Shown here one piece after another: positions 823 to 17,093 of a DNA stretch of 17,093 bases. Each line of letters opens with the position of its first letter. The stretch's first letter is position 1. Under the pieces are notes generated by a model, which saw only the letters and a program-made list of their open reading frames with translations, made no database searches and was not told the origin of the DNA. Both the position numbers and the translations under genes were made by a program. The stretch is from an uncultured Methanosarcinales archaeon (GTDB lineage: Archaea; Nanobdellota; Nanobdellia; Woesearchaeales; CAZKBD01). The stretch spans positions 11,602-28,694 of the forward strand of contig CAZKBD010000012.1 of assembly GCA_964550945.1 (NCBI GenBank). Reading direction: 5' to 3'.

Positions 823-1200
823 ATGGCTACTGCGAAGGATCTGGAAAATGGCAGTTATTTCCTGCATAACAGGGAGATAATGAAAGTTATAAGGAAAGAA
901 TTAGTTGCTTATGGCACGCATAGCCATACAAAATTAAAGATATTTGCGCAGCCTTTGTTATCTAGAGGCGAAAAAGCAATAACCATGATGCATCATGATA
1001 AGGTTGAAATTTTAGATATAATGAAGAAAGAAGCTCAAGTGATATCTAAATTACAAGGTAAATTGCAGATAATGGACATTCAAAGCTATGAAACTTTTGA
1101 TGCCCATGCTGAGCCGGCATTAGTGGAGCAAATAAATGAAGGGGACATAGTAACTTTTATAAACTTCAACGGCCAAAACAGGATCATAGAGAAGAGGTGA
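823..1200 (+). CDS. eif5a: Translation initiation factor 5A (aIF5A) homolog
   Basis: It aligns by eye along its full length with archaeal aIF5A. The N-terminal KOW-like part is LENGSYFL...VAYGTHSHTKLKIFA (archaeal consensus S.PGKHG.AKAR). The OB part is KLQIMDIQSYETFDA (consensus VQIMD..TYETFE). 125 aa is a typical size. Confidence 0.8.
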   Translation: MATAKDLENGSYFLHNREIMKVIRKELVAYGTHSHTKLKIFAQPLLSRGEKAITMMHHDKVEILDIMKKEAQVISKLQGKLQIMDIQSYETFDAHAEPALVEQINEGDIVTFINFNGQNRIIEKR

Positions 1201-1396: not shown

Positions 1397-2824
1397 TCAC
1401 TCGCTAAAAACCTGCGCTTGGTAAACAAGAACTTCAGTGTTAGGATCTTTCCAGCAGCCTTGGCTTGCGCCGCCTTTAACGCATAAGCTGGATAAGAATT
1501 CTTCTTTGCTATCGAACATCTCCCATACTTGAGGAAGATAGGTGCTCTGGTGCCAGCCAGATTTTATCACAACACCATCAACCATAGGCCTTAACTTCTC
1601 TAATAATTCCTGCGAGTCATTATACTCTAACTTGTAAGGAGATGTTAGGACAGAGACCTCAACCTCAATATCCTTAATCTCATCTTCTGTGACAGGATTA
1701 AATCTGCCATCATTAACAGCTGCATTGACAGCATTATCAATAACGCACTTATAAAGCTCTTCCTGGGGCAAAATATGGCCAATACAGCCTCTTAAATTCC
1801 CATTTTTATTTAATGTAACAAAGCACCCTTGAACTTTTTTCAGTTTCTCAGAAGCATTTCCTTTGATTGTAACTGTTTTCTTATCTTTCACATAAGATTC
1901 AAAAGAAGCTCTTGCTAGTTTTAATAAAAACTCCTGCTCTTCTTTGTTTAATTCTCCTTCTGGTTGTTTTGAAAATTCATCCACAAACATAAATGTAGAA
2001 TAACCAACAACCTTGCTTTTGTCGCCTGTTACATCGCCAGAATTTGCGTAATAAATCAATCTTGGCTTCCAGTTCTTTTCTTTTGCAATCTCCAATAATG
2101 TGGCTACAGCCCATGGAGCATCTATTTCTGCATCCATTATGCCGGCAGAATCAAGGCTTAATATCATTTCTATTGAATAGCCATCTAATTTTTTTGCATC
2201 ATCATAAGGATGATAATGGGACATGTCAACACTCACAACAATCAGATCATCTTCAGAAAGATAGTTTAATAATAATCCTTTTAACTTACTGGTATCCACA
2301 GGGCCCACTAAAATAGGGATGATCTTAAGATTAGCCAACTGTTTTTGTAAAAAAGGAAGCTCTATCTCTAATGAATGCTCATTCTTATCAGCTTCTGGAA
2401 TAGAATCCACAAGCTCTTCATTTAGCATATCACTTGCTTTTTGTGATAACTCAATCTCTCCAAGAGGCGTTTTATAATGAGTCACATTTGATATTGAAAG
2501 CCCTCTTAAAGGATACTGATGAGAAGGGCCTAACAAAAAAACATTCTCATAAGCGTTACCAAGCTGCCTGAAAGCAGTTGCAGCAACCTGGCCAGAATAA
2601 GCATAGCCTGCATGTGGAACGATTATTGCCTTTATGGTGCCATTAGTATCTATCTTTTTAACATTGCTTAAAAATTGCTCAACAGCACTATTAAGCTCTT
2701 CTTGAGTGCCAGGATACCAGCTTCCAGCAACAGCAGGCTCTCTGACTGTTTTTTGCGCAACTTTTCCTTGTTCGCATCCTGCCAAAACAACCAGGCATAC
2801 AACAATAAATAATATTTTTCTCAT
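1397..2824 (-). CDS. Fused Memo-like (AmmeMemoRadiSam protein B type) and AMMECR1 (protein A type) protein with an N-terminal lipoprotein-type signal peptide
   Basis: N-terminus: MRKILFIVVCLVVLAGC (hydrophobic core plus an LAGC lipobox). Memo motifs: AGSWYPG, VPHAGYAYSG, LLGPSH, VSVDMSHY. AMMECR1 motifs: GCFVTL..NGNLRGCIGH, RFNPV, VEVSVLT, STYLPQVW. ATG start at 2824. Confidence 0.85.
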   Translation of the reverse strand: MRKILFIVVCLVVLAGCEQGKVAQKTVREPAVAGSWYPGTQEELNSAVEQFLSNVKKIDTNGTIKAIIVPHAGYAYSGQVAATAFRQLGNAYENVFLLGPSHQYPLRGLSISNVTHYKTPLGEIELSQKASDMLNEELVDSIPEADKNEHSLEIELPFLQKQLANLKIIPILVGPVDTSKLKGLLLNYLSEDDLIVVSVDMSHYHPYDDAKKLDGYSIEMILSLDSAGIMDAEIDAPWAVATLLEIAKEKNWKPRLIYYANSGDVTGDKSKVVGYSTFMFVDEFSKQPEGELNKEEQEFLLKLARASFESYVKDKKTVTIKGNASEKLKKVQGCFVTLNKNGNLRGCIGHILPQEELYKCVIDNAVNAAVNDGRFNPVTEDEIKDIEVEVSVLTSPYKLEYNDSQELLEKLRPMVDGVVIKSGWHQSTYLPQVWEMFDSKEEFLSSLCVKGGASQGCWKDPNTEVLVYQAQVFSE

Positions 2825-2900: not shown

Positions 2901-3734
2901 TCAAAAATTATGCCTAACGCCTATATACAAATGATATCCTAAAGGTACATTCCTTTGGTTGTCTTGTGGAACATCAAATCTTACAGCGCCTGTTGCATGC
3001 CATTTTCCTTTGCTGCCGGTATATCTTCCTATTGGCCCAATTTCAAATTTCTTTGTTCCTTCATCTCCCATTGTAGCTAAGGCGTCAATACCTATTCTTA
3101 AATGCTTACCAGCCTTAAGTGTAGGAGATGCTCCTACCGTAAACAAATCTTCACCATGAGGCACATGTGTGTACTTAAAAAGAAAATCCAGCATCGCACC
3201 ACTTGGATATTCTCTTGTTGCGCCAAAATAACTGCCTAAAGTATAAACTCCTTTTCCAAGATTTGCCTTTCCCCCTTCTTTGTAATCGCCTGTTGGAAAG
3301 CCAACCTCAACTCCTAGGATGGAGTCCCAATCGCTATGGAACAGCCTGCCAAATCTAAGTGCGGTGTCGCCAATACCAGAATTTTCATGTTTTAGAGTCA
3401 ATTTTTTTCTTGTTCCATCTTCAGCAACAGTTGTGCTATTTACAACATTATCTATCGAAACAGCTGGCAAAGAAACCGATGCAAACCAATCATCAGTCCT
3501 TCCTTTAAGAGTTAATGTATTTATTGACTTCTCTGATTTTGTATCTTTTTTGTTTCCTTTATCATCAGCAGACTCGCTCTTAGCCCTATACGTGTCACTT
3601 ACAACTTCAGCCTGAAATGAAAGCTTTCTTCCTTCATCAGGCGGCGGAAGTGGTTTGCCGTTATAAAGGTCAGCAGATGCTGTTCCACTAACTGCTAACA
3701 CACTTGCGCTTAGACTCGCTAAAAATCGTTTCAT
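2901..3734 (-). CDS. Secreted beta-barrel protein resembling bacterial outer-membrane 'MetA-pathway of phenol degradation'-type transporters
   Basis: Sec signal MKRFLASLSASVLAVSGTASA|DL. About 12 alternating amphipathic strands. Family-like motifs SGIGDTALRFG, VGFPTGDY and LGKG. The C-terminus ends in ...YIGVRHNF (terminal Phe, as in OMP sorting signals). A strong SD, GAGGAGGT, lies 3-4 nt upstream of the ATG. Confidence 0.6.
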   Translation of the reverse strand: MKRFLASLSASVLAVSGTASADLYNGKPLPPPDEGRKLSFQAEVVSDTYRAKSESADDKGNKKDTKSEKSINTLTLKGRTDDWFASVSLPAVSIDNVVNSTTVAEDGTRKKLTLKHENSGIGDTALRFGRLFHSDWDSILGVEVGFPTGDYKEGGKANLGKGVYTLGSYFGATREYPSGAMLDFLFKYTHVPHGEDLFTVGASPTLKAGKHLRIGIDALATMGDEGTKKFEIGPIGRYTGSKGKWHATGAVRFDVPQDNQRNVPLGYHLYIGVRHNF

Positions 3735-4734: not shown

Positions 4735-5349
4735 TCACCCTGTTAAATTCTGGCTAAGCAGCAAGCCAATGCCAATGATTACCATGACCGCATAAGCTAT
4801 TTTATTCCATTGAAGGATCTTTTTTCCGTCAAAATTCAAAAATGGGATCATGTTAAACAAGCCAAGCCATGTATTAATCAGATATCCGTAAAAGAATATC
4901 TTTGAAGGAGAAATAAAAACCAAGCCAGCTAAAAACAATGCTGCCATTATCAGGTTCATCAAAGGCCCTGCCATCGAGATTATGCCGTTCCTTCTTCTTC
5001 CAACAGGCCCTGCAATCATTACAGCGCCTGGGGCGGCAAAAACAAATCCAAAAAAAGACATGACAATAGCCAAAAAAAGCATCGTGTCAAATGACCTGAA
5101 CTCAGCAAAGCATCCATAATGCTGCGCAACCAATTTATGCCCTAATTCATGGATTAAAAAACCAAGGCCGACTGTTAATGCTGATATCAGCAGCATAGTG
5201 ACAAAGCTAAGGGAGAATATGCTGCCCTGGTTCAGCACAATGCCAAATGCTATAGATATCGCTATCCAGGCCTTCAAAATGTTGTTAATCTCGATACTTG
5301 AAGTAGTAAAAGGCCCTAATCTTATTGGTTTTGAGCGGGTAAACTCCAT
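4735..5349 (-). CDS. M50-family site-2 protease (intramembrane zinc metalloprotease)
   Basis: HExxH sits inside a TM helix (FLIHELGHKLVAQHYG). The second metal-ligand motif is NMIPFLNFDG. There are about 6 hydrophobic helices. Confidence 0.85.
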   Translation of the reverse strand: MEFTRSKPIRLGPFTTSSIEINNILKAWIAISIAFGIVLNQGSIFSLSFVTMLLISALTVGLGFLIHELGHKLVAQHYGCFAEFRSFDTMLFLAIVMSFFGFVFAAPGAVMIAGPVGRRRNGIISMAGPLMNLIMAALFLAGLVFISPSKIFFYGYLINTWLGLFNMIPFLNFDGKKILQWNKIAYAVMVIIGIGLLLSQNLTG

Positions 5350-5463: not shown

Positions 5464-5799
5464 ATGGCAATAAAATATTTATTAATCGCAGCAATAGTGG
5501 TTTTTTTATTTAGCGGATGTTCCCAAACTGATAATATACAATCTTCTGAACAGCAATTCATGACCTATGTTGTTGACGGTTCTCAGGGAACAATGGACAC
5601 TTACACAATCTCAGAATACCAGCCAATTGATTTATCTGAATCTTTTGAGCAGGACAGAGCTGATATAGAATCCCAACGTAAATATGAAGCAGTCAGAAAC
5701 CAAGCTGACCGAGAGAAAAAAGAGAGCGAAAGATTAAAATGCTACAAAAAACACGATAAAAACGAAACAGAATACTATCTAGAAGAATGCGAAAATTAA
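5464..5799 (+). CDS. Small putative lipoprotein (hypothetical)
   Basis: MAIKYLLIAAIVVFLFSGC is a signal peptide with a lipobox-like FSGC. The rest is polar and charged, with no recognisable domain. Confidence 0.5.
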   Translation: MAIKYLLIAAIVVFLFSGCSQTDNIQSSEQQFMTYVVDGSQGTMDTYTISEYQPIDLSESFEQDRADIESQRKYEAVRNQADREKKESERLKCYKKHDKNETEYYLEECEN

Positions 5800-6359
5800 G
5801 TGTCAACAAAAATCATGTGCTTCTCTTTTCCTTTTATTTCTGCAAATATCCTCTTTATAATTGCCTTTTTTGGATCAGGCATCAGCTTAACCCTTTTCTT
5901 TATGTCTTCAAAATTCTCAAATGGCTTCTCTTTCCTTGCTTCAATTATCTCCCACATATGCTTTTTTCCAAGTCCTGGCAATAATTCAAGCTGGTGCATT
6001 CTGGTGCTTAATGGCTGAGCCTTGTTGTAGAAGTCAACAAAGCGCTTTTCATTTTTATTCACTATCTCTTTCACAATATACTCTAATTCATTCTTTGCTG
6101 TTTCTGTCAGCTTTTCAACCGGAAGCTTTCCCAATATATGGTGGATATCATCTCTTTTTCCTTCTCCAATGTAGACTACTGCATGAGGCTGCAGATGAAC
6201 ATCCTTTTTTGGCACTAACTCAAGCAAAACAAAATGCTCCTGGCCTAGAGCCTGGGCTATTGCAGTCTTTACATATGTTGGCCTTGAATCAAATGGATAG
6301 CCGTAAGGCAAAAAATCAAGGACAATTGCGAATTCTTCTTTTTGGGTGTCCATTTTCAT
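5796..6359 (-). CDS. DUF655-family protein (archaeal predicted RNA/nucleic-acid-binding protein with a helix-hairpin-helix)
   Basis: EEFAIVLDFLPYGY..., FVLLELVPKK, VVYIGEGKRD, RFVDFYNKAQPLSTRMHQLELLPGLGKKHMWEII..R...F.NFEDIKKRV. This family classically sits next to rpl21e-rpoF in archaea, as it does here. Confidence 0.8.
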   Translation of the reverse strand: MKMDTQKEEFAIVLDFLPYGYPFDSRPTYVKTAIAQALGQEHFVLLELVPKKDVHLQPHAVVYIGEGKRDDIHHILGKLPVEKLTETAKNELEYIVKEIVNKNEKRFVDFYNKAQPLSTRMHQLELLPGLGKKHMWEIIEARKEKPFENFEDIKKRVKLMPDPKKAIIKRIFAEIKGKEKHMIFVDT

Positions 6360-7261
6360 AATTTTAAGGTTGTTGTATACCTATGTGTTGCATTTAACCA
6401 ATCCTGCTCTAATTTTGCAACATTCTTTGCTGATTCTATCCTCTCATCCTTTAATCTCAGCAGTTTTTCCTTTTCTTTCAACAGGTGATATATCTTGATT
6501 TTTAATCTTTTCCTGACGCTTTCCTTTTGCTTAAGCTTGTTGAATATCTTTATTTCCTTCTGGTAATTGCTCTCCAAAGCAGTCAGCAAGGCTAATAATC
6601 TTGTAATCCAATGCGTGAAATTTTTGCTTTTTAGTATATCCTTCCTGATATTGTTTGCTGGCGGCAGTTTAGCCTCCAAATGGCATAACAGCTCTGACTC
6701 TTTTTTCAATATTGGCTCTAAATGATTTATCCCTAATTCTTTCTCTTCTTCAGCCTCTATCTCTTTTTTCTTGTAATCTTTTAGCAACCTTTTGTCTGTA
6801 AATATCAATTTCTCAATCAGCTCATATACTATCTGCTCAAGCTTTGTTATCTCTTCTTTGCTTAGGCTGTCTTCTTGCTTCTGCAGCTTTTGCAGCTCCG
6901 TCTTGCCCAATATCCCTATATTGATCTTCAGCAAGCCAAGCTCTTCCAAAAATACTGTTTCAAGGTAATAGTTTATATCCCTTAACTTCATTACTAATCT
7001 TCTTAGTAATGTCATATTAGCTTTTAAAATTGCTATTGCTTTATCCTCTTTTTTTAAGTCAATTGCTAATGTCTGGATTAGCAGTTCATGCAACTGTTTC
7101 AGCAGCAATGCTTTCTTGCTTTCAATGGTTATATCTTTCCTGAAAAGTAAAGCGATGTTTGGCTTTAACTTTTTATGCTTAACAGCATTTGCCTCTTTTA
7201 TTACTTTGCTAACTATTTCTGACTCTTTTATCTTAAACCACCTTATTAAACTGTATAACAC
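6356..7261 (-). CDS. Lys/Glu/Leu-rich coiled-coil protein (hypothetical). Start uncertain.
   Basis: The 301-codon ORF has heptad-like K/E/L composition and no recognisable motif. The track 'M' is a GTG (plus-strand cac at 7259..7261), and the first ATG is about 80 codons in. Its stop overlaps the DUF655 start (ATGA at 6356..6359). Confidence 0.5.
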   Translation of the reverse strand: MLYSLIRWFKIKESEIVSKVIKEANAVKHKKLKPNIALLFRKDITIESKKALLLKQLHELLIQTLAIDLKKEDKAIAILKANMTLLRRLVMKLRDINYYLETVFLEELGLLKINIGILGKTELQKLQKQEDSLSKEEITKLEQIVYELIEKLIFTDKRLLKDYKKKEIEAEEEKELGINHLEPILKKESELLCHLEAKLPPANNIRKDILKSKNFTHWITRLLALLTALESNYQKEIKIFNKLKQKESVRKRLKIKIYHLLKEKEKLLRLKDERIESAKNVAKLEQDWLNATHRYTTTLKL

Positions 7262-10373: not shown

Positions 10374-11291
10374 ATGCGAAGAAAAGTAATCCAGATAGCA
10401 GAGTCCACACAGCTTGTTTCATTACCCAGGAAGTGGGCGTTACAGCATAACATAAAGAAAGGCGATGAGCTTGAGATTGAGGAGAAAGGTTCTCAGATTA
10501 TAATCTCCACTGAAAAAGGCCCTCCAGTTGAAAAGGCTGAACTTAATATGGAACATCTTGAGCCTATGACCTTAAGGTATATTGTGGCACTTTACAAAAA
10601 GGGAGTGGATGAAATAAGTGTAACTTTTGATCATCCTACAAAGATTAAGGTTGTGCAGGATTCTATCGGAAAAGAGGCTGTAGGATTTGAGATTACCGAG
10701 CAAACACCTACTAGCTGCATTATTAAGCATGTTTCAGGAGAGCTTGAAGATTTTGATCCAATCCTTAGAAGGACATTTTTGCTTCTGGATTCTATGGCGA
10801 AACAGACCTATGAAGCATTGAAAAATGATAGGTTGGATGATCTAAAAAATGCAGCATTTTTAGAAGAAGCAAACAATAGGTTCACAACAACTTGCAGGAG
10901 ACTACTTAATAAGAAGGGATATAAAGATAATAAGAAAATAGGCCCGCTATACTATATTATAGAAGATTTGGAGAATATTGCCGACCAATATAAATATCTC
11001 TGCATGTATTTTTATCAAAAAAAAGATAAAAAAATAAAATTCAATAAAAAGGCATTAGCAATATTTAAAGATACAAATGATTTGCTCAGTAAGTTCTATG
11101 AGTTATTCTATAAGTATGATGTTGGGAAAGTAGTGAATATGGGGATATTAAGAAAAGAGATTATCCAAACAGCATTTAAACTATTCGAAAATTCAAAGAA
11201 CCCTGATGACACAGTGCTGTTGCATTATAGCTTGACAATAATGCAGAAGGTCTTTTGTCTAGCAGGGCCTTATCTTGTAATAGCCCTATAA
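10374..11291 (+). CDS. AbrB/SpoVT-type DNA-binding domain fused to a PhoU-like helical domain (archaeal 'phosphate uptake regulator'-type protein)
   Basis: The N-terminus, RRKVIQIAESTQLVSLPRKWALQHNIKKGDELEIEEKGSQIIIS, is a typical swapped-hairpin AbrB fold motif. The remaining ~250 aa is helical with paired repeats as in PhoU-like proteins. The PhoU call is by architecture and is less certain. The 3' end overlaps the convergent PHP gene by 22 nt. Confidence 0.6.
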   Translation: MRRKVIQIAESTQLVSLPRKWALQHNIKKGDELEIEEKGSQIIISTEKGPPVEKAELNMEHLEPMTLRYIVALYKKGVDEISVTFDHPTKIKVVQDSIGKEAVGFEITEQTPTSCIIKHVSGELEDFDPILRRTFLLLDSMAKQTYEALKNDRLDDLKNAAFLEEANNRFTTTCRRLLNKKGYKDNKKIGPLYYIIEDLENIADQYKYLCMYFYQKKDKKIKFNKKALAIFKDTNDLLSKFYELFYKYDVGKVVNMGILRKEIIQTAFKLFENSKNPDDTVLLHYSLTIMQKVFCLAGPYLVIAL

Positions 11292-12274
11292 GCTTCTTGA
11301 AGAGCTTTAACATGCTCTCCTTCCATTCCTATACCTAACTGCCTTTCAGGAGTAAATGCTCCATGAAAATCACTGCCACCAGTCAACAATAGACTCTTAC
11401 CATTAAGGCAGGCCATTTTATTGTATCCAGGGGGTATCTGTATTTTTAAATCTCGCAACTGGTTTGCTACCCATTTGAAATCAGTGGGATTCTCTTCAGC
11501 AGACCTATTTCCGCTCCTTAACTCAAAACCAGCTAATCCATATTGGACATATTCAGCAATCTTCTCCAAAACATTATAGCCACATGTCTCAATCTCAATT
11601 AAATGAGGTAAAATGGCTAAACCATTCAATCTTAATATAGCTTCTATTCCCTCTTTAGGAGTTGGAAATATTGGATCAGTTAGTGAAACATAGGCAGGAG
11701 ACTCTCTATTAAGATATGTGTTCATAGCTTGTTGCGGAGTGACAGCATCCCCCATCTCTTCTAAACCCCTAGATATTGCAACCCCTGCATGAAGCCTACT
11801 TGGAATACCCTGGGAAACAATGTCCATCAAGATTTGTTCTGCGTCAAAACATAAGCCCCTTGAGGTTATAGCAGGATGAGCATTTAATTTGGATATCATT
11901 TCTTTAAATCTTTCTATTCTTTGGTTTCTAACTTCCCTAAACCTTTCTGTGACCTGCTCGCTAGGTTCATCAAGATACAGGCCAATAATATGCACAGTTT
12001 TACCTGCATCATCACAAGATAACTCAATGCCCCTGATAATATCTAAATTTCCATAACCGTAAACTCCAGGAGAAACTTGGCTGGTACATTCTAAGTACTG
12101 GCTGTTATCCCTTATATTATCTGGAGAAAGTGCACGGAGATCATCATGGTCTGTTATTGCTAGTTGCATCAATCTTGTTGTCTTTGCTAAGTTGACTAAT
12201 TCAGGCAAAGAAGAATGCCCATCTGACCAACTAGTGTGAGCATGTAAATCTACAATCACTTTATCTTCTACCAT
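11270..12274 (-). CDS. PHP-domain metal-dependent phosphoesterase, TrpH/YciV-like
   Basis: VDLHAHTSWSDG...LAITDHDDL, IRGIELS, VHIIGLYLD, RLHAG, YL..ESPAYV, LAILPHL, GFEL and LLLTGGSDFHG give the full PHP metal-ligand series in TrpH/YciV order. The track start at 12286 is a GTG. ATG 12274 gives MVEDKVIVDLHAHT, the usual short N-terminus, and overlaps the upstream gene's end by 14 nt. Confidence 0.8.
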   Translation of the reverse strand: MVEDKVIVDLHAHTSWSDGHSSLPELVNLAKTTRLMQLAITDHDDLRALSPDNIRDNSQYLECTSQVSPGVYGYGNLDIIRGIELSCDDAGKTVHIIGLYLDEPSEQVTERFREVRNQRIERFKEMISKLNAHPAITSRGLCFDAEQILMDIVSQGIPSRLHAGVAISRGLEEMGDAVTPQQAMNTYLNRESPAYVSLTDPIFPTPKEGIEAILRLNGLAILPHLIEIETCGYNVLEKIAEYVQYGLAGFELRSGNRSAEENPTDFKWVANQLRDLKIQIPPGYNKMACLNGKSLLLTGGSDFHGAFTPERQLGIGMEGEHVKALQEAYRAITR

Positions 12275-14498
12275 TTGCAGCACCACTATACTTTAGCTCG
12301 CTTATACCAGAACAATATTTCAAAGGATCGCATAGTCCAGACAAAGTACAATCAAGGGGGAGACTCTTGACCAAATCAACAGCCAATCCTAGATGATAGC
12401 CAACTACAGCAAGATAATGTGCCTTTTTCGCTCCGAATTGGTCATCACTTATAATCCCTGCTTCATGTTGGGATGCTAATTTTGGCCAATATTTTGCCAT
12501 GAATAACCCAGCCTCCCTACAAGTTCTAAATAAATGGACTGCCATCGATTCAGGAGCATCTATATCAGGTATATTATTTGGAGATTGGTTTTGAATATCT
12601 CTATAAAACTTAGCTTTTTGAGCATTATCGAGATGAGCATCAAAAAAATCCAGAATTTCCCACACATCTTCTAAATGGTGCGCATCCTTAGCAGCATGAT
12701 CTATTGAATACATTGCTCTCCCAAGTTTTTCTCTCGACAGTGCATTATCATCAGAGAACATGTTGATAAGTGCATCTGGCGTAATGTTTATCCATCCGGT
12801 TCTTATTATGCTGTTCCTAAATGTACCGCTAAAATACCTCATTATGGTTTCGTCTGTTAATAAGCTACCCCACTGATAATTGTTAATAGCACTTCTAGCT
12901 CTGTCTACTTGTTCTTGTGGAATTTGAACATCCGAAAAGCGGCCAAAATTTTCAAAAAAAGCCGCCAACCTACCAATATACCCTTTTTTAACTTGTTCTA
13001 GGCTGTAAGTTTCCTGGCTTGTTAATGTGGGCATGTTTTTTCTCCAGAACATGTATTCCTTAATCCTCTGACTAACAATCGCATCCCTCATATCATATGC
13101 AAGAGGATTGTTTGATCCATTTAACTCCCTTAGTACATCTGCGCTATTTGGGCCTATCAAATCCTCCTCTAGTAGAAATGTAGATCCATCGCCAACTGGC
13201 AGAGGCCTTCTAAGGATTTCTGCAGTTCTAAAATAAGGATCTCCTGCAAGGGGTTTTCCACTTGCAAAAAATTGAGTCCAATCATCATACGCTTGGGTTG
13301 CTTCACTTAACTTAAACTGTTTAAGTAGGAACCTCCTAGCAGATTCCACTTCATAGGCTGTATTGGGGTTAACTATCTCTATTGCACCGTCTGCGCAGTC
13401 TAAATCATTGACTAGGATAGCTACATTCCTTGAATATTGTCCTGAACGAGCAAGTTCCCTAAATCTTCGCAATGCTCCAACAGCGGAGTGTCGCAAATCC
13501 TCAATCAACTCAGGGGCGCTATCCCATTCAAAGTAATAACCTAGCCCAATTAACAACGCATTTCTTGGGTCAGTTATCTCTCTTGTTCGATTATGCTGGT
13601 CTAAATCCCCCGTTATAGTATCTATGGTGTGATTAAAGAGAACTAAATTACTTGGTCTTTGATAATAAAAAACTCGTTGAGGCATTTTTTGAAACATATC
13701 AAGTATATAGTGAGGAGGAGAATTATCCAGAATAAATAATGTTCTTGTTGTATTGTTGCATCTTTGCTGATTAAGCATTAACTCTTCAACTGCTTTTTTC
13801 TCTCCATCCAGCGCTTTAAGGTAAATTATAGACAATCCTGGTGAAATATGGCCTATCAACCTATTAAATCCCTCTAAATCCCTTGAAGGCAATACCCTAT
13901 ACCCTTTTTCTCCAAGTTGTTTTAATAATTCAGTCAGTTTAGGCCTTCCTTGATCACCTCCCTCCAATAAAGCCACAGTATAATTTGATTTGTCCCTCTC
14001 TTGGCCTAAATAACTCTCTCCTCCTGAGGCATATACCATTTTACCTGCCATATGTGCATTCTCTATTGCTAGCCTAACCTGATTTTTGTAGTACCCCATA
14101 TCAGAATCAAGAAGCCTCCAAGATGGGACAACAACATCAAACACGCCTCTTTCAAAACATTCATCTGTTGTTTCTGAGTAAGCATGCAGAAGAGACACAG
14201 TTGGGATGCTCCTATTTACTTCTACAATCTTTCCTAATCTTTCATCGCTACAATCTGTAACAATTACGTTTAGATTGCCTTGACCTATTCTTTCTATTGC
14301 AGACTCTAGATTTCTTGTATACTCCAGTTTTGCTCCATGTTCTCTAGCTTGAGAAAGGTGGCTATGGTCTATCCCAGACCCTTCCAAAAGACAGGCTAAA
14401 ATAGTACAATCTATCAATTCATCGTTTGAAACATCACTCTGGCTTCTGCCCATATTAAATATCCCTTTTATACTACCCTCTATGAATTTATATGCCAC
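12261..14498 (-). CDS. Large uncharacterised protein with two degenerate receiver (CheY-like)-type N-terminal domains and a ~460-aa unrecognised C-terminal region
   Basis: The uninterrupted ORF is 745 codons. Domain 1 is ~res 25-135: ILACLLEGSG...NLNVIVTDCSDERLGKIV...IPTVSLLHAY...GVFDVVVPS. Domain 2 is ~res 170-290: VALLEGGDQG...GYRVLPSRDLEGF...GLSIIYLKALDGEKKAVEEL...TLFILDN...VFYYQRP. Both follow the beta-alpha receiver pattern, and the second lacks the acceptor Asp. The track start at 14498 is a GTG. The alternative ATG at 14453 (MGRSQSD) is preceded by AAAGGGA. Confidence 0.6.
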   Translation of the reverse strand: MAYKFIEGSIKGIFNMGRSQSDVSNDELIDCTILACLLEGSGIDHSHLSQAREHGAKLEYTRNLESAIERIGQGNLNVIVTDCSDERLGKIVEVNRSIPTVSLLHAYSETTDECFERGVFDVVVPSWRLLDSDMGYYKNQVRLAIENAHMAGKMVYASGGESYLGQERDKSNYTVALLEGGDQGRPKLTELLKQLGEKGYRVLPSRDLEGFNRLIGHISPGLSIIYLKALDGEKKAVEELMLNQQRCNNTTRTLFILDNSPPHYILDMFQKMPQRVFYYQRPSNLVLFNHTIDTITGDLDQHNRTREITDPRNALLIGLGYYFEWDSAPELIEDLRHSAVGALRRFRELARSGQYSRNVAILVNDLDCADGAIEIVNPNTAYEVESARRFLLKQFKLSEATQAYDDWTQFFASGKPLAGDPYFRTAEILRRPLPVGDGSTFLLEEDLIGPNSADVLRELNGSNNPLAYDMRDAIVSQRIKEYMFWRKNMPTLTSQETYSLEQVKKGYIGRLAAFFENFGRFSDVQIPQEQVDRARSAINNYQWGSLLTDETIMRYFSGTFRNSIIRTGWINITPDALINMFSDDNALSREKLGRAMYSIDHAAKDAHHLEDVWEILDFFDAHLDNAQKAKFYRDIQNQSPNNIPDIDAPESMAVHLFRTCREAGLFMAKYWPKLASQHEAGIISDDQFGAKKAHYLAVVGYHLGLAVDLVKSLPLDCTLSGLCDPLKYCSGISELKYSGAANGRR

Positions 14499-14674
14499 CA
14501 GCTACATTATTATTCAAAAACATACCTGAAGATATTGATTCATTTATAAACATTTTGTTTATAACCACCCAATAGTGATTACCTCATATTAATCATCACA
14601 TGATCCTCTAATCTGCTCCCAAGAAAAACCAAACTTTCAAATGCATGTAGTTAGCTTATACTTATAAACATTTT

Positions 14675-14683
14675 GTTAACTCC
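14675..14683. repeat. Left copy of the 9-bp target-site duplication GTTAACTCC
   Basis: An identical 9-mer directly abuts both ends of the IS (the second copy is at 15586..15594). Confidence 0.65.
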
Positions 14684-15585
14684 GGCTTAGTCCCGAATCT
14701 CCAAAAGCCAAGAAAAAAGATTATGGCAGGCTAGCCTGCCATAGATTTCTGTTCTAATGGTTACTGCTTTTTTAGAGCTTACGCTACTGCCCATAGTCTG
14801 CTTGATGGAATGATTACCTGATTCTGCCATTTCTCTACGATGATAAGTCCTTAGTCTGAAATGTTCTATTGCTTTTTGCCTTGCATCCCATCGGTGAAAT
14901 CTAGGCTTACCATAACCTCTGATTGGGATATGTGCTTTGATGCCCTGCTCTTGGCAATATTCATGAAGCCAAGCAGCATCATATGCTTTATCAGCTACCA
15001 CAACCTTAGGTTGACTTTGCATTATCAATTGTTTGGCATCCCGAATATCGTGAGAAGGCAATACTCTAATTTTTGCAGCCAATGCTTTCTTTTTCCTTGT
15101 GTCAAAAGCTATACTCGCTTTGACAGGAATTTTTGGGATTGCTCCACTAATGCGTCTAAGATAGTGGTAGCTCGGGTTTGTTCTTGAAAATCCTGTGCTG
15201 TCAATCGCTATGATATATGCTTGACTGCTAGTTGCTTTCAGCACTCTATTCCAAAATTCAGAATTAAGTTTTTGTGCCGTTCTTTGTAATGATGATTTGC
15301 TTGGGCACTTAATGCCTAACAAGTCCAAAAGCTTCTTTGCTCGTCGATATGACAACCTACAAAAGAACCTTATTAGCAAGGCAGCAAAATGTTCATAGAA
15401 TTCATATGTCTTAGGCCCAAAATGATGAAGCCATCTAGGACAACCCAAGCGTCTTAACAAACGCTTAACTTTTTTAACTAGTTTGTTTTCTTTTTCCATG
15501 GTGGAGCGTACCTCCACCCCCATCAACAGCCTAACGGCTGTTATGGGTTATAATTCTTATGAAACAAGAGATTCGGGACAGAACC
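14684..15585 (-). mobile_element. 902-bp insertion sequence, IS5 family (IS903-group-like)
   Basis: The 18-bp imperfect terminal inverted repeats are GGCTTAGTCCCGAATCTC (14684..14701) and the reverse complement of 15568..15585, GGTTCTGTCCCGAATCTC (15/18 identical). The ends begin GG(C), the element is flanked by a 9-bp direct repeat, and it carries a single DDE transposase ORF that ends inside the left IR. A 9-bp duplication, GGC ends, 18-bp IRs and ~0.9-1 kb size match the IS903 group as I remember it. Confidence 0.75.
14687..15523 (-). CDS. DDE transposase (IS4/IS5 superfamily)
   Basis: The catalytic candidates are IAIDSTGF (D), VVADKAYD (D) and a perfect Y-2-R-3-E-6-K signature, YHRREMAESGNHSIK. 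The track start at 15526 is a TTG. The first ATG is 15523, and another is at 15499 (MEKENK). Confidence 0.8.
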   Translation of the reverse strand: MGVEVRSTMEKENKLVKKVKRLLRRLGCPRWLHHFGPKTYEFYEHFAALLIRFFCRLSYRRAKKLLDLLGIKCPSKSSLQRTAQKLNSEFWNRVLKATSSQAYIIAIDSTGFSRTNPSYHYLRRISGAIPKIPVKASIAFDTRKKKALAAKIRVLPSHDIRDAKQLIMQSQPKVVVADKAYDAAWLHEYCQEQGIKAHIPIRGYGKPRFHRWDARQKAIEHFRLRTYHRREMAESGNHSIKQTMGSSVSSKKAVTIRTEIYGRLACHNLFSWLLEIRD

Positions 15586-15594
15586 GTTAACTCC
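15586..15594. repeat. Right copy of the 9-bp target-site duplication GTTAACTCC
   Basis: See 14675..14683. Confidence 0.65.
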
Positions 15595-15609
15595 TTGAAT
15601 CTCTTGCTG

Positions 15610-16110
15610 TTATTTGGTTTCCTTAACCTTTCTGACAAGCTCCAATAAAGCATCCTGGCTTCTCTCATTAATGATATAATCTATAACTAAATTTATCCTC
15701 AAATAGTCTAATTCTCTATGCGAAGATAATGGGTCCCCAAAATCAGCTATTAACGCCATTGCTACCCCTTGTAATCTCTCTCCCAAATCCCCCTTTCTAA
15801 CAGCAGAAATCAAATCTAGTCCAGCTCCTTCTCTGCCAAGATTATATGAAGTGACCAATACACCTATATCGTCAGCTAAGGCTTTTATTCTTTCCAAGCC
15901 TTCTTTATATGGAACAACAAGCCTATCAGCATTATCATAAAATGGCCTAGTTCTTTCAACTGTTTCTCCTCGCTGAGAATCATCAAAATAAACAACAATA
16001 GGTTCTGCTTCGACAGATTCAAGCCTATGCTCCCTTAATAATTCATCATTTTCAAACAGCCATTTTAGAACTTCAATATTATACCCATGATCAACAACTG
16101 CAACTTTCAT
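15610..16110 (-). CDS. 166-aa uncharacterised protein, possibly a degenerate receiver/flavodoxin-like fold
   Basis: It starts MKVAVVD. Later, VLVTSYNLGREGAGLDLISAVRK ... VAMALIADFGD ... IDYII resembles the beta3-alpha3-beta4-beta5 part of receiver domains, but with Ser where the acceptor Asp is expected. Its start overlaps the ArgB-like stop (ATGA at 16107..16110). The fold call is by eye only. Confidence 0.5.
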   Translation of the reverse strand: MKVAVVDHGYNIEVLKWLFENDELLREHRLESVEAEPIVVYFDDSQRGETVERTRPFYDNADRLVVPYKEGLERIKALADDIGVLVTSYNLGREGAGLDLISAVRKGDLGERLQGVAMALIADFGDPLSSHRELDYLRINLVIDYIINERSQDALLELVRKVKETK

Positions 16111-17036
16111 TGGTAATTCACTCTTTCTCTCTCGTACACTTTTTTTTCTCGAGGTGATACAACCATGGTTCCAGTGCCTGCTCCAAATACCTCCCCTATA
16201 AGGCCATACGGGTCTGTTCCTTTGACAATATGAGCTCTAGCAACTCCATTTTCAACCGCGTGAATGCATGTCCTTAATTTAGGCAGCATACCTTTAGTAA
16301 CAACCCCTTTTCGTTGCATCATACTCCTTGCTTCATCTGTGTCCATATAAGACACCAAATCAGAATGCCTTCTATCCGGATGCCTGTAAACTCCCATAAC
16401 ATCAGTTAATATCACTAATTTATCAGCTTTGATTTTTTCTGCGATTCCTCCAGCAACAGCATCAGCATTAATGTTGTAAATCACGCCTTCAGGATCCATC
16501 CCTAAGGAAGAAATAACTGGGATATATCCTTGATTGACTAAAGCCTCCAAAACATAAGTCTTTACATCTGCCACTTCACCAACAAGGCCTAGATCTATTT
16601 GTCTTCTCCCCACCATTCTTGGAGGAGCTTTTCTAGCTAAAATTAGGTCAGATTTATCGGTTCTTTGAAGGCCAACCGCTTCAAGCTCGTATCTATTTAG
16701 CGCTTCTACAACATTTGAGTTAAGTTCCCTCATAACAGGCCTTACTGCTTGCTCTAGAGTTTCTTGGTTAGTTATCCTTAAGCCTGAATCAAATTCTGGC
16801 TCGATTCCAATCTCTTTGGAATAATCGCTAATTTGAGAACCACCACCATGAACAACGACCATCCTAATGCCAAGTTTATACAAAATAGCCATTTCATGAG
16901 CTAATGAGTCTAGTGTTTGGCCTATTACTTCGCCCCCCATTTTGAAAACAAATGTCTTGCCTATACTTTTTCTAATATATGGAGCTACTAATTCAAGAAA
17001 TTGTATACATTCTAAGCTGGGTTGATTTGATTTCAT
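16107..17036 (-). CDS. argB: N-acetylglutamate kinase-like amino-acid kinase (ArgB family, long form with an N-terminal helix)
   Basis: It is collinear with long-form NAGKs: LELVAPYIRKSIGKTFVFKMGGE, VVVHGGGSQI, GLRITNQET, LGLVGEV, GYIPVISS, YNINADAVAG, KLVILTDVMGV, KGMLPKL and GTGTMV. The ORF stays open to the window edge, but ATG 17036 (MKSNQPS...) gives the normal N-terminus and is preceded by AAGGGG and a TATA-like CTTAAATAT (17067..17075, minus strand). Confidence 0.85.
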   Translation of the reverse strand: MKSNQPSLECIQFLELVAPYIRKSIGKTFVFKMGGEVIGQTLDSLAHEMAILYKLGIRMVVVHGGGSQISDYSKEIGIEPEFDSGLRITNQETLEQAVRPVMRELNSNVVEALNRYELEAVGLQRTDKSDLILARKAPPRMVGRRQIDLGLVGEVADVKTYVLEALVNQGYIPVISSLGMDPEGVIYNINADAVAGGIAEKIKADKLVILTDVMGVYRHPDRRHSDLVSYMDTDEARSMMQRKGVVTKGMLPKLRTCIHAVENGVARAHIVKGTDPYGLIGEVFGAGTGTMVVSPREKKVYERERVNYQ

Positions 17037-17093
17037 TAGATCGCCCCTTATCTGAATTATGAGGGCATATTTAAGTTTTTCTGTTTTTATCAC

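Follow-up and report, generated by a model that had tools for sequence, protein, structure and literature searches.

Introduction

In cyanobacteria and plants, N-acetylglutamate kinase (NAGK) is paired with PII (structures 2V5H and 2JJ4), an arrangement that combines an ArgB-type kinase bearing an N-terminal extension with a small, non-catalytic regulatory protein. Similar ingredients are encoded on the minus strand of contig CAZKBD010000012.1 (assembly GCA_964550945.1), in a stretch of 17,093 nt that was analysed at full length and is called the window below. In it, the genes for an ArgB-like kinase and a 166-aa protein are followed, in this order, by those for a 745-aa protein and a PHP-family phosphoesterase. 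The predicted fold of the kinase's partner is that of CheY and its gene lies in the same operon, with overlapping codons, whereas PII is a GlnB-type trimer of ferredoxin-like fold; the pairing proposed here is read from the genes. A preliminary description of this locus joined all four genes into a single circuit of kinase, receiver-like scaffold and phosphatase. The present analysis favours, with a probability of roughly 0.7, two independent units, each separately conserved in archaea, that are adjacent in this genome only: unit A (the ArgB-like kinase and the 166-aa protein) and unit B (the 745-aa protein, the PHP phosphoesterase and an AbrB-PhoU protein encoded by a convergent gene).

For each component there are described relatives from which it differs. 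Pseudo-receivers (PsRs), including the N-terminus of KaiA, the AdiA-type wing domain and the bacterial PsRs, have the receiver fold minus some of its five catalytic residues, and the 166-aa protein resembles them in this. A working receiver has an acidic pair after beta1, an acceptor Asp at the end of beta3, a Thr/Ser at the end of beta4 and a Lys after beta5, and the beta3-alpha3 and beta4-alpha4 loops are the regions most different in PsRs (doi 10.1101/2025.06.23.661182). Conservation in the 166-aa family is concentrated in these same two loops. The protein has no PF00072 match, which places it outside the operational definition used in that study (doi 10.1101/2025.06.23.661182), and it further differs from PsRs in standing alone, in being archaeal and in being paired with an amino-acid kinase.

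With APH(3'), APH(4), NahK and Rv3168, the C-terminal part of the 745-aa protein shares a predicted bilobal fold, a beta3 Lys, an alphaC acid, a loop Asn and a metal-binding Asp. It differs from these aminoglycoside phosphotransferase (APH) kinases in giving no sequence match, in having Ser for the catalytic Asp, in its own motifs and in its fusion to a putative receiver-like region. Response regulators with enzymatic outputs are comparable to four members of its family, in which a true receiver is joined to the kinase-like domain and which look like orphan regulators whose output resembles an enzyme; in the window protein the receiver would be a degenerate one, and no histidine kinase is encoded nearby. 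In Gram-positive bacteria, BY-kinase genes adjoin those of the CpsB/YwqE PHP tyrosine phosphatases. In those pairs the kinase is of the P-loop BY type, whereas here it is APH-like; the PHP protein here is of the TrpH/YciV type and not CpsB, and unit B is archaeal, with AbrB-PhoU as a third partner. The best-scoring named families for this PHP protein, with which it shares its metal-binding motifs, are TrpH/YciV (RNase AM/RNM) and the Cv1693-type phosphatases, but it reaches 74-79 bits against cut-offs of 375-400 and has an insertion of ~60 residues. A census of archaeal two-component systems names no output of the kinase-like, PHP or PhoU kind. Literature searches found neither gene combination described, which agrees with the preliminary description, and neither the 166-aa family nor the kinase-like domain has a curated model in Pfam or NCBIfam; the folds in both units are known ones.

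Results

Two separately conserved gene units

The genes concerned, and the mobile element that lies between them, are the following:

16107-17036, minus strand: ArgB-type (NAGK family) amino-acid kinase (TIGR00761, PF00696)
15610-16110, minus strand: 166-aa protein, predicted CheY-fold pseudo-receiver (AlphaFold2 model, Foldseek)
14684-15585, minus strand: IS5-family insertion sequence (IS), 902 bp, with its transposase open reading frame (ORF) at 14687-15526
12261-14498, minus strand: 745-aa protein with a possible degenerate receiver-like N-terminus and a C-terminal kinase-like domain (HMMER family, AlphaFold2)
11270-12274, minus strand: PHP-family phosphoesterase, TrpH/YciV-like (PF02811, motifs)
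10374-11291, plus strand: AbrB-PhoU protein, 305 aa (PF04014, 1.5e-8; weak PhoU match)

The ORFs agreed with the minus-strand order given in the preliminary description, and also with its junctions: the 166-aa gene overlaps the argB stop through an ATGA at 16107-16110 (a sign of translational coupling), the spacer before the 745-aa gene carries the IS, and the PHP gene, begun at its ATG (12274), overlaps the 745-aa stop by 14 nt. No histidine kinase was found among the window proteins, as had been stated. The further statement that no helix-turn-helix output or other known partner is present did not hold, since the AbrB-PhoU gene, most of which lies outside 11270-17093, proved to be a conserved neighbour.

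Relatives were compared in their genomic contexts, which are short, low-GC archaeal metagenome contigs, several or many of them from one sample series. For the 166-aa gene, the junction with the kinase gene and the sequence that follows were:

Window and L001-L003: ATGA overlap with the kinase gene; then IS5 and the 745-aa gene
L004: 3-nt gap to the kinase gene; then a methyltransferase gene
L005 (partial): abutting the kinase gene; then a partial ORF with a receiver-like beginning
L006 (Loki's Castle sediment contig SDBT01000338): 4-nt overlap; then convergent Na/Ca exchanger genes
L017: 4-nt overlap; then a convergent Na/Ca exchanger gene

For the kinase-like family of the 745-aa protein (identities are to the window proteins) they were:

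L007-L010 (P0009): as in the window, a kinase-like gene, a PHP gene (51% identical) and a convergent AbrB-PhoU gene (74%)
L012 (P0011): a kinase-like gene, a PHP gene (29% identical, E 1e-36) and a convergent AbrB-PhoU gene (63%)
L011 (P0012): an AbrB-PhoU-like gene (23%) upstream and a PHP gene (26% identical, E 6e-19) downstream
L013 (P0021, true receiver): the end of the kinase-like gene overlapped by a PHP-like gene (E 9e-9), after which the contig breaks off
L014 (P0013, 477 aa): a convergent AbrB-PhoU gene (61%) with a 4-nt overlap; no PHP gene in view
L015/L016 (P0029, true receiver, intact DxxxxN): a divergent PHP gene upstream and a convergent AbrB-PhoU gene (43%) with an 18-nt overlap

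Every member of the 166-aa family with neighbouring sequence (the window and four further lineages) was directly preceded by an AA_kinase gene. In L004, L006 and L017, all contigs of sufficient length, this pair was followed by neither a 745-aa nor a PHP gene. The kinase-like family adjoined a PHP gene in six of seven contexts, the window counted, and an AbrB-PhoU gene in six of seven as well. This linkage persisted at 23-28% identity between the kinase-like proteins and in a changed gene order (L011, L015). An ArgB-like gene stood beside the kinase-like family in 0/6 other contexts (L007-L016); in L007 the genes upstream were one for a 235-aa unknown protein and one for an M50 peptidase. Thus, the ArgB-like, 166-aa, 745-aa and PHP genes, which had been taken as one set, were never found together outside this genome. 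The coupling proposed for the 745-aa and PHP genes fared better: they form a conserved pair with tight junctions (a 14-nt overlap, 2-nt gaps, a 4-nt overlap), and a logic of phosphorylation and dephosphorylation is plausible for it. The two-unit reading is also favoured by the IS5 element, which sits with a fresh 9-bp duplication at the junction between the units.

Both units are limited to a few low-GC lineages of uncultivated archaea. Among the GTDB species representatives, scans for the 166-aa and 745-aa proteins brought up no relatives.

Unit B: a predicted kinase-like output and its neighbours, a PHP phosphoesterase and an AbrB-PhoU protein

The 745-aa gene starts at a GTG; the alternative ATG at 14453, used in the ENA call, would give a protein of 730 aa. 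The protein had no match in Pfam or NCBIfam, and a word-indexed search for homologues returned only the protein itself. Among 1.84 billion representatives, an exhaustive HMMER search picked up 27 genuine relatives besides the protein itself (a further match, to a repeat protein, was a false positive), and all 27 aligned through residues ~340-740. A Pfam match within the kinase-like domain was found in none of the 28 family members. Four relatives have a true N-terminal Response_reg domain (PF00072, E 1e-14 to 1e-22), and two more gave weak receiver or KaiA_N matches. In the window protein the following regions were distinguished:

12279-13406, minus strand: aminoglycoside-phosphotransferase/protein-kinase-like domain, residues ~365-740 (AlphaFold2, Foldseek)
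14019-14429, minus strand: possible degenerate receiver, residues 24-160, with D82 at the acceptor position (hhalign)
13584-14006, minus strand: second alpha/beta region, residues 165-305 (AlphaFold2 secondary structure)

In the AlphaFold2 model, residues ~370-740 mostly had a predicted local distance difference test score (pLDDT) of >90, while residues 1-330 were poorly modelled (below 50). The top 27 Foldseek matches in the PDB were all of the APH type (APH(4)-Ia, APH(3')-Ia, NahK, Rv3168 and others), with E values of 1e-4 to 1e-2, probabilities of 0.99-1.0 and template modelling (TM) scores of 0.40-0.57 (the best 0.5-0.57); eukaryotic-type protein kinases came lower in the list. By its model, the C-terminal domain, described earlier as large and unknown, is an APH/protein-kinase-like bilobal fold. 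At the sequence level no match to PF01636, Pkinase or a PDB kinase was found, NCBIfam included, and a family profile run against the PDB sequences returned receivers only and no kinase. A 15-bit match of the C-terminus to SHOCT was rejected as noise.

The conserved residues of the family would fit a kinase, their roles being assigned by motif order, spacing and predicted structure. K393, which lies in a beta-strand and is present in 20/24 members, would be the beta3 Lys, and D406, in the next helix, the alphaC acid; N562 (27/27) would correspond to the catalytic-loop Asn and D600 (27/28) to the metal-binding Asp, the equivalent of that of DFG. A G449-P hinge, E610-D611 (27/27), R658 and R661 are conserved as well, and the family is marked by motifs of its own (HxLED, YRxxR) and, at the C-terminus, by a long helical extension. 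In APH and protein kinases the catalytic Asp lies five residues before the Asn (HxDxxxxN). At the corresponding position, 557, Asp was found in 8/27 members, Ala/Gly in 16/27 and His in one, while the window protein and P0009 have Ser. The altered loop is itself conserved, reading RNxAATxRN across the family, and the window protein shares the exact sequence MRYFSGTFRN with P0009, its closest relative (41% identical overall). Such a change does not look like simple decay.

The N-terminal part of the protein had been described as two tandem degenerate receivers. Residues 24-160 aligned weakly to the receivers of the relatives (hhalign, E 0.035, 87 columns), the register being as expected, and the N-terminus of the family profile matched the receivers of NtrC1 and CpxR (E 1e-3). 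Residues 165-305 gave no significant hhalign match to those receivers; in the AlphaFold2 model they alternate between helix and strand at a pLDDT of <50. A relaxed Pfam scan of the N-terminal region (E<=10) found no Response_reg domain, and a PDB sequence search with it returned nothing at E<=10. From the family architecture, a tandem of degenerate receivers, weakly supported in the window protein itself, is plausible.

The mechanical ORF of the PHP gene opens at a GTG (12286). Its product scored 32.4 against PF02811 (gathering cut-off 26.4), and its metal-ligand motifs are intact: HxH (DLHAHTSWSDG), DHD, GIELS, VHI, LPH and SDFHG. It reached 79.3 bits against the model for 3',5'-nucleoside bisphosphate phosphatase (NF041577, cut-off 400) and 73.6 bits against that for RNase RNM (TrpH/YciV; NF047791, cut-off 375). 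By these scores it lies outside both named equivalogs, which are its nearest named families. The PHP gene beside P0029 (L015 5025-5891) encodes a protein of a different subgroup, CehA/McbA-like (72 bits), with PHP_C, which could reflect independent recruitment or coincidence.

The AbrB-PhoU gene is convergent with the PHP gene, their 3' ends overlapping by 22 nt. An overlap of exactly this length was present in three lineages (window 11270-11291, L007 5977-5998, L012 3878-3899), though their PHP proteins are just 29-51% identical. Where the kinase-like gene itself meets the AbrB-PhoU gene, the overlap is of 4 nt in L014 and 18 nt in L015.

From these folds, motif states and gene linkages we infer a mechanism in which the first gene of unit B would encode a response-regulator-like protein with an APH/protein-kinase-like domain, so far without a family model, as its output, the second a PHP metal-dependent phosphoesterase and the third an AbrB-PhoU DNA-binding protein. 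The kinase-like domain would bind ATP-Mg and transfer a phosphate, or a nucleotide, to a substrate that it shares with the PHP enzyme, which would take the group off again; candidates for this substrate would be a small molecule, a nucleotide or AbrB-PhoU itself. Control of the kinase-like domain would fall to a true receiver in distant relatives. In the window protein control would probably be allosteric and the chemistry atypical, because the putative receiver and the catalytic-loop Asp are both altered. The kinase partner of the PHP enzyme would be this C-terminal domain and not ArgB, and the two would most likely form a write/erase pair that shares one phospho-substrate and either is read out by AbrB-PhoU or acts on it.

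The same domain might instead be a dead scaffold or sensor, with the PHP protein an independent nucleotide or RNA phosphoesterase (a pAp phosphatase or RNase AM-like) and the adjacency a matter of co-regulation by AbrB-PhoU, for example under phosphate limitation. This account is possible although doubtful. It would explain the Ser of the window protein and the Ala/Gly of 16/27 members at the catalytic Asp, the 3',5'-nucleoside bisphosphate phosphatase and RNase RNM models as the best NCBIfam matches of the PHP protein, a link to phosphate that the PhoU domain may indicate, and the occurrence in L014 of the kinase-like gene with AbrB-PhoU and no PHP gene in view. However, the strong conservation of the altered loop (RNxAATxRN in the family, MRYFSGTFRN in the window protein and P0009) speaks against a dead domain, the retained, putatively ATP-Mg-binding Lys, Asp, Asn and Asp argue for retained nucleotide chemistry, and the overlapping or near-abutting junctions of the kinase-like and PHP genes suggest stoichiometric co-expression.

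Unit A: an ArgB-type kinase and a predicted pseudo-receiver partner

The mechanical ORF of the kinase gene (16107-17093) opens at a GTG (17093); its probable start is the ATG at 17036 (MKSNQ...), which is preceded by GGGG and agrees with the ENA gene call and with the alignment to relatives. The protein scored 217.9 bits against TIGR00761 (argB, an equivalog-domain model with a cut-off of 151.3) and 2.9e-43 against PF00696. Of its partnered relatives, the L004 kinase also passed the argB cut-off (207.7 bits), while those of L006 (114.3 bits) and L017 (146.3 bits) fell below it; the [LysW] kinase models were the next-best matches. The best solved relative was the NAGK of Synechococcus (2jj4/2v5h, 188 bits). 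In alignment with the Synechococcus and Arabidopsis enzymes, the motifs KxGG, HGGG, GLR(V/I)T, NINAD (N-x-N-A-D) and GMxPK were all present, and the kinase motifs were invariant in A6 except for a change of GGM to KGM. All four partnered kinases have KGM or TGM where GGM is expected, and in the L006 and L017 kinases GDRxTD replaces GLRxT, beside the substrate-binding Arg. Further arginine-biosynthesis genes were absent from the window, as noted earlier for the genes adjoining argB, and also from the 10 kb upstream of argB (seen in L001) and from L004, L006 and L017.

The AlphaFold2 model of the 166-aa protein, built from five sequences, had a pLDDT of 87.1. Foldseek matched it to CheY (3h1f, E 1.9e-5) and to >30 receiver structures, the AdiA CheY-like wing domain among them, with TM scores to the target of 0.65-0.73 for receivers. 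The receiver-like call made in the preliminary description is thus borne out at the level of the modelled fold. No match was found in Pfam or NCBIfam, PF00072 being absent even at E<=10. With the receiver positions mapped from predicted strand ends, D7 is the only invariant residue of those expected after beta1. No Asp is conserved at the acceptor position at the end of beta3, where the family reads T-S-Y-N, T-A-Y-D, I-A-S-N and so on; the end of beta4 reads I-A-D, and no Lys is conserved after beta5. Since most of the defining residues are missing despite the fold, the protein is, as modelled, a pseudo-receiver, which by these residues cannot be phosphorylated at the canonical site. The transfer from an acyl-phosphate to a receiver imagined earlier finds neither a conserved acceptor Asp nor a conserved Lys in this family. 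The residues that are invariant (D7-x-GYN, LG..GLDLI after beta3 and IADFGDPLS.H after beta4) sit in the beta1-alpha1, beta3-alpha3 and beta4-alpha4 loops, so that the conserved surface would be the former active-site face. Between beta2 and beta3 there is an insertion of ~40 residues. The idea of a split DUF619/GNAT domain of NAGS/K was discarded because of the CheY fold.

The family is small (seven 90% clusters among 5.8 billion). Its members are pairwise 52-66% identical, while the coupled kinases fall to 30-35% identity between two subgroups, so the partner would seem to be under stronger constraint than the kinase. Unit A would consist of a NAGK-type enzyme and a dedicated regulatory or adaptor subunit, the 166-aa protein, bound to it. 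That the two form a physical complex, in a logic like that of PII-NAGK, is the most likely arrangement, given that translational coupling is kept across lineages, that the partner is the better conserved of the two and that its conserved residues cluster on one face.

A role outside regulation is improbable. By that account the ArgB-like enzyme would act on a substrate other than N-acetylglutamate, with the 166-aa protein as its carrier or scaffold, in the manner of LysW and LysZ. It draws on the two of the four partnered kinases below 151.3 bits (114 in L006 and 146 in L017) and their GDRxTD in place of GLRxT, on the lack of further arg genes in any of the four contexts and on the next-best rank of the [LysW] kinase models. 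However, the window (218 bits) and L004 (208 bits) kinases pass the argB cut-off, and the best alignment is to bona fide NAGKs. LysW-type carriers have a conserved C-terminal acceptor Glu. The C-termini of the 166-aa partners are not conserved (KETK, TEAK, EQGYKK, QEKS), and their predicted fold is that of CheY as against the zinc ribbon of LysW, and a LysW-type carrier was rejected on these two grounds.

The junction between the units

At the junction lie the insertion sequence and a repeated motif, with these additional features:

14675-14683 and 15586-15594: target-site duplication GTTAACTCC, 9 bp, two copies, identical 9-mers flanking the inverted repeats
14662-14677, minus strand: 16-nt motif AACAAAATGTTTATAA, copy 1, overlapping the target duplication
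14544-14559, minus strand: 16-nt motif AACAAAATGTTTATAA, copy 2, TATA-like, within the palindrome TTATAAACAAAATGTTTATAA (14544-14564)

The IS5 transposase matched PF01609 (DDE_Tnp_1, 4.6e-14) and, at 137.4 bits, came just below the cut-off of 140 for NF033579; the ends of the element are 18-nt terminal inverted repeats matching at 15/18 positions. The relative L005 has the empty site (...AATTAACAAAATG...). The gap between the 166-aa and 745-aa genes is 1111 nt, and minus the IS the native spacer is 200 nt, as the preliminary description had put it approximately. For ~185 nt this native spacer is homologous to the L005 sequence downstream of the 166-aa gene, after which the two diverge. The metagenome contigs L001-L003 all stop inside an IS5 copy, which suggests that the element is multi-copy. 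Directly upstream of argB there is an IS630-like transposase gene (DDE_3 with a helix-turn-helix domain; L001 7961-8922, also in L002), and thus two different mobile elements bracket the ArgB pair in this genome.

Exact copies of AACAAAATGTTTATAA numbered two in the window, against 0.12 expected. Copy 1 would lie ~20 nt past the 166-aa stop once the IS is removed, and its 13-nt core has an exact copy in L005 (740-752), 25 nt downstream of the 166-aa gene. Copy 2 ends 46 nt upstream of the GTG of the 745-aa gene, has a near-identical copy in the same place in L005 and may be a promoter or operator. A T-run in the spacer, shared with L005, would likely be the terminator of the ArgB operon, and the second motif would serve the following gene as its promoter. 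The ORF downstream in L005 (191 aa, partial) has no significant similarity to the kinase-like proteins and no Pfam receiver match.

A single four-gene circuit, in which an acyl-phosphate made by ArgB would be passed to the receiver-like proteins and the PHP enzyme would be the phosphatase, can appeal to the common strand of all four genes, to an IS-free spacer of merely 200 nt, to the same spacer leading into an ORF with a receiver-like beginning in L005 and to D82 of the 745-aa protein at the acceptor position in the hhalign register, but it is very improbable: it is unsupported because the co-occurrence test failed (0 in the three ArgB-pair and six kinase-like contexts in which it could be seen) and the acceptor residue is missing (in the 166-aa family neither the acceptor Asp nor the Lys is conserved), and there is besides no Pfam receiver match in either protein at E<=10, a T-run and second TATA-like motif in the spacer that suggest two transcription units, and an IS element on each side of the ArgB pair.

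Other genes of the window

The contig is archaeal, the window (GC ~38%) encoding eIF2-gamma, L21e, S6e, Rpb4/RpoF, DUF655 and TrmB, and groundwater metagenome contigs carry genes identical to the window's. No tRNA gene was found in it, an Rfam scan of it gave 0 RNA family matches, and the PADLOC defence models gave 0 matches for any of the five proteins tested. The M50-type peptidase of the window (204 aa, 4735-5349, minus strand) is 52% identical to the copy at L007 1420-2043. In L007 this gene lies two genes upstream of the kinase-like gene, and in the window 7 kb away, past the ribosomal-protein/eIF2-gamma cluster, a difference that points to rearrangement between the two lineages. A 475-aa ORF (1397-2824, minus strand) fuses a Memo-like domain (PF01875, 2.3e-52) to AMMECR1 (PF01871, 8.6e-50), and a 277-aa ORF (2901-3734, minus strand) matched PF13557 (Phenol_MetA_deg, 6e-8). 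Members of PF13557 are bacterial outer-membrane beta-barrel proteins, and the match seems out of place on an archaeal contig. Three ORFs were Pfam-negative: 301 aa (6356-7261, minus strand), 125 aa (823-1200, plus strand) and 111 aa (5464-5799, plus strand).

Discussion

Several observations weigh against the division of the locus into two independent units with the functions proposed. The synteny of unit B could in part reflect inheritance within a single clade and not selection, the AbrB-PhoU proteins being 43-74% identical. The Ser at position 557 in the window protein and P0009, and the Ala/Gly in most family members, mean that the kinase-like domain could be a non-catalytic nucleotide-binding scaffold, and the PHP protein encoded beside P0029 (L015) comes from a different, CehA/McbA-like subgroup. 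In L005, the nearest of the relatives that have sequence on the downstream side, the spacer stays homologous for ~185 nt and then leads into the partial ORF with a receiver-like beginning, so a linkage of units A and B restricted to some lineages keeps a small share of the probability. Finally, the interactions and activities put forward for both units were deduced from sequences and predicted models.

It is conceivable, if somewhat unlikely, that the locus holds an undescribed archaeal system in the full sense: a receiver-controlled atypical kinase would write a mark, phosphate or nucleotidyl, on a small-molecule messenger or on AbrB-PhoU itself, the PHP enzyme would erase it, and the mark would set the DNA binding of AbrB-PhoU, while the ArgB/pseudo-receiver pair would be a new form of regulation of arginine synthesis.

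The four-gene reading of kinase, receiver and phosphatase arose from a juxtaposition in one genome beside mobile elements, which calls for caution. Signalling in uncultivated archaea is little known, as are archaeal pseudo-receivers, and the locus offers two testable cases. In unit A, a CheY-fold partner without phosphorylation chemistry is more conserved than the kinase with which it is co-translated, and this suggests a PII-free regulation of N-acetylglutamate kinase. In unit B, the output of a response-regulator family appears to be a kinase-fold domain that forms a new branch of its superfamily; the genes of this family consistently lie near those of a PHP phosphoesterase and of a DNA-binding protein of the PhoU type, and together they could be a new phosphate-related or second-messenger circuit.

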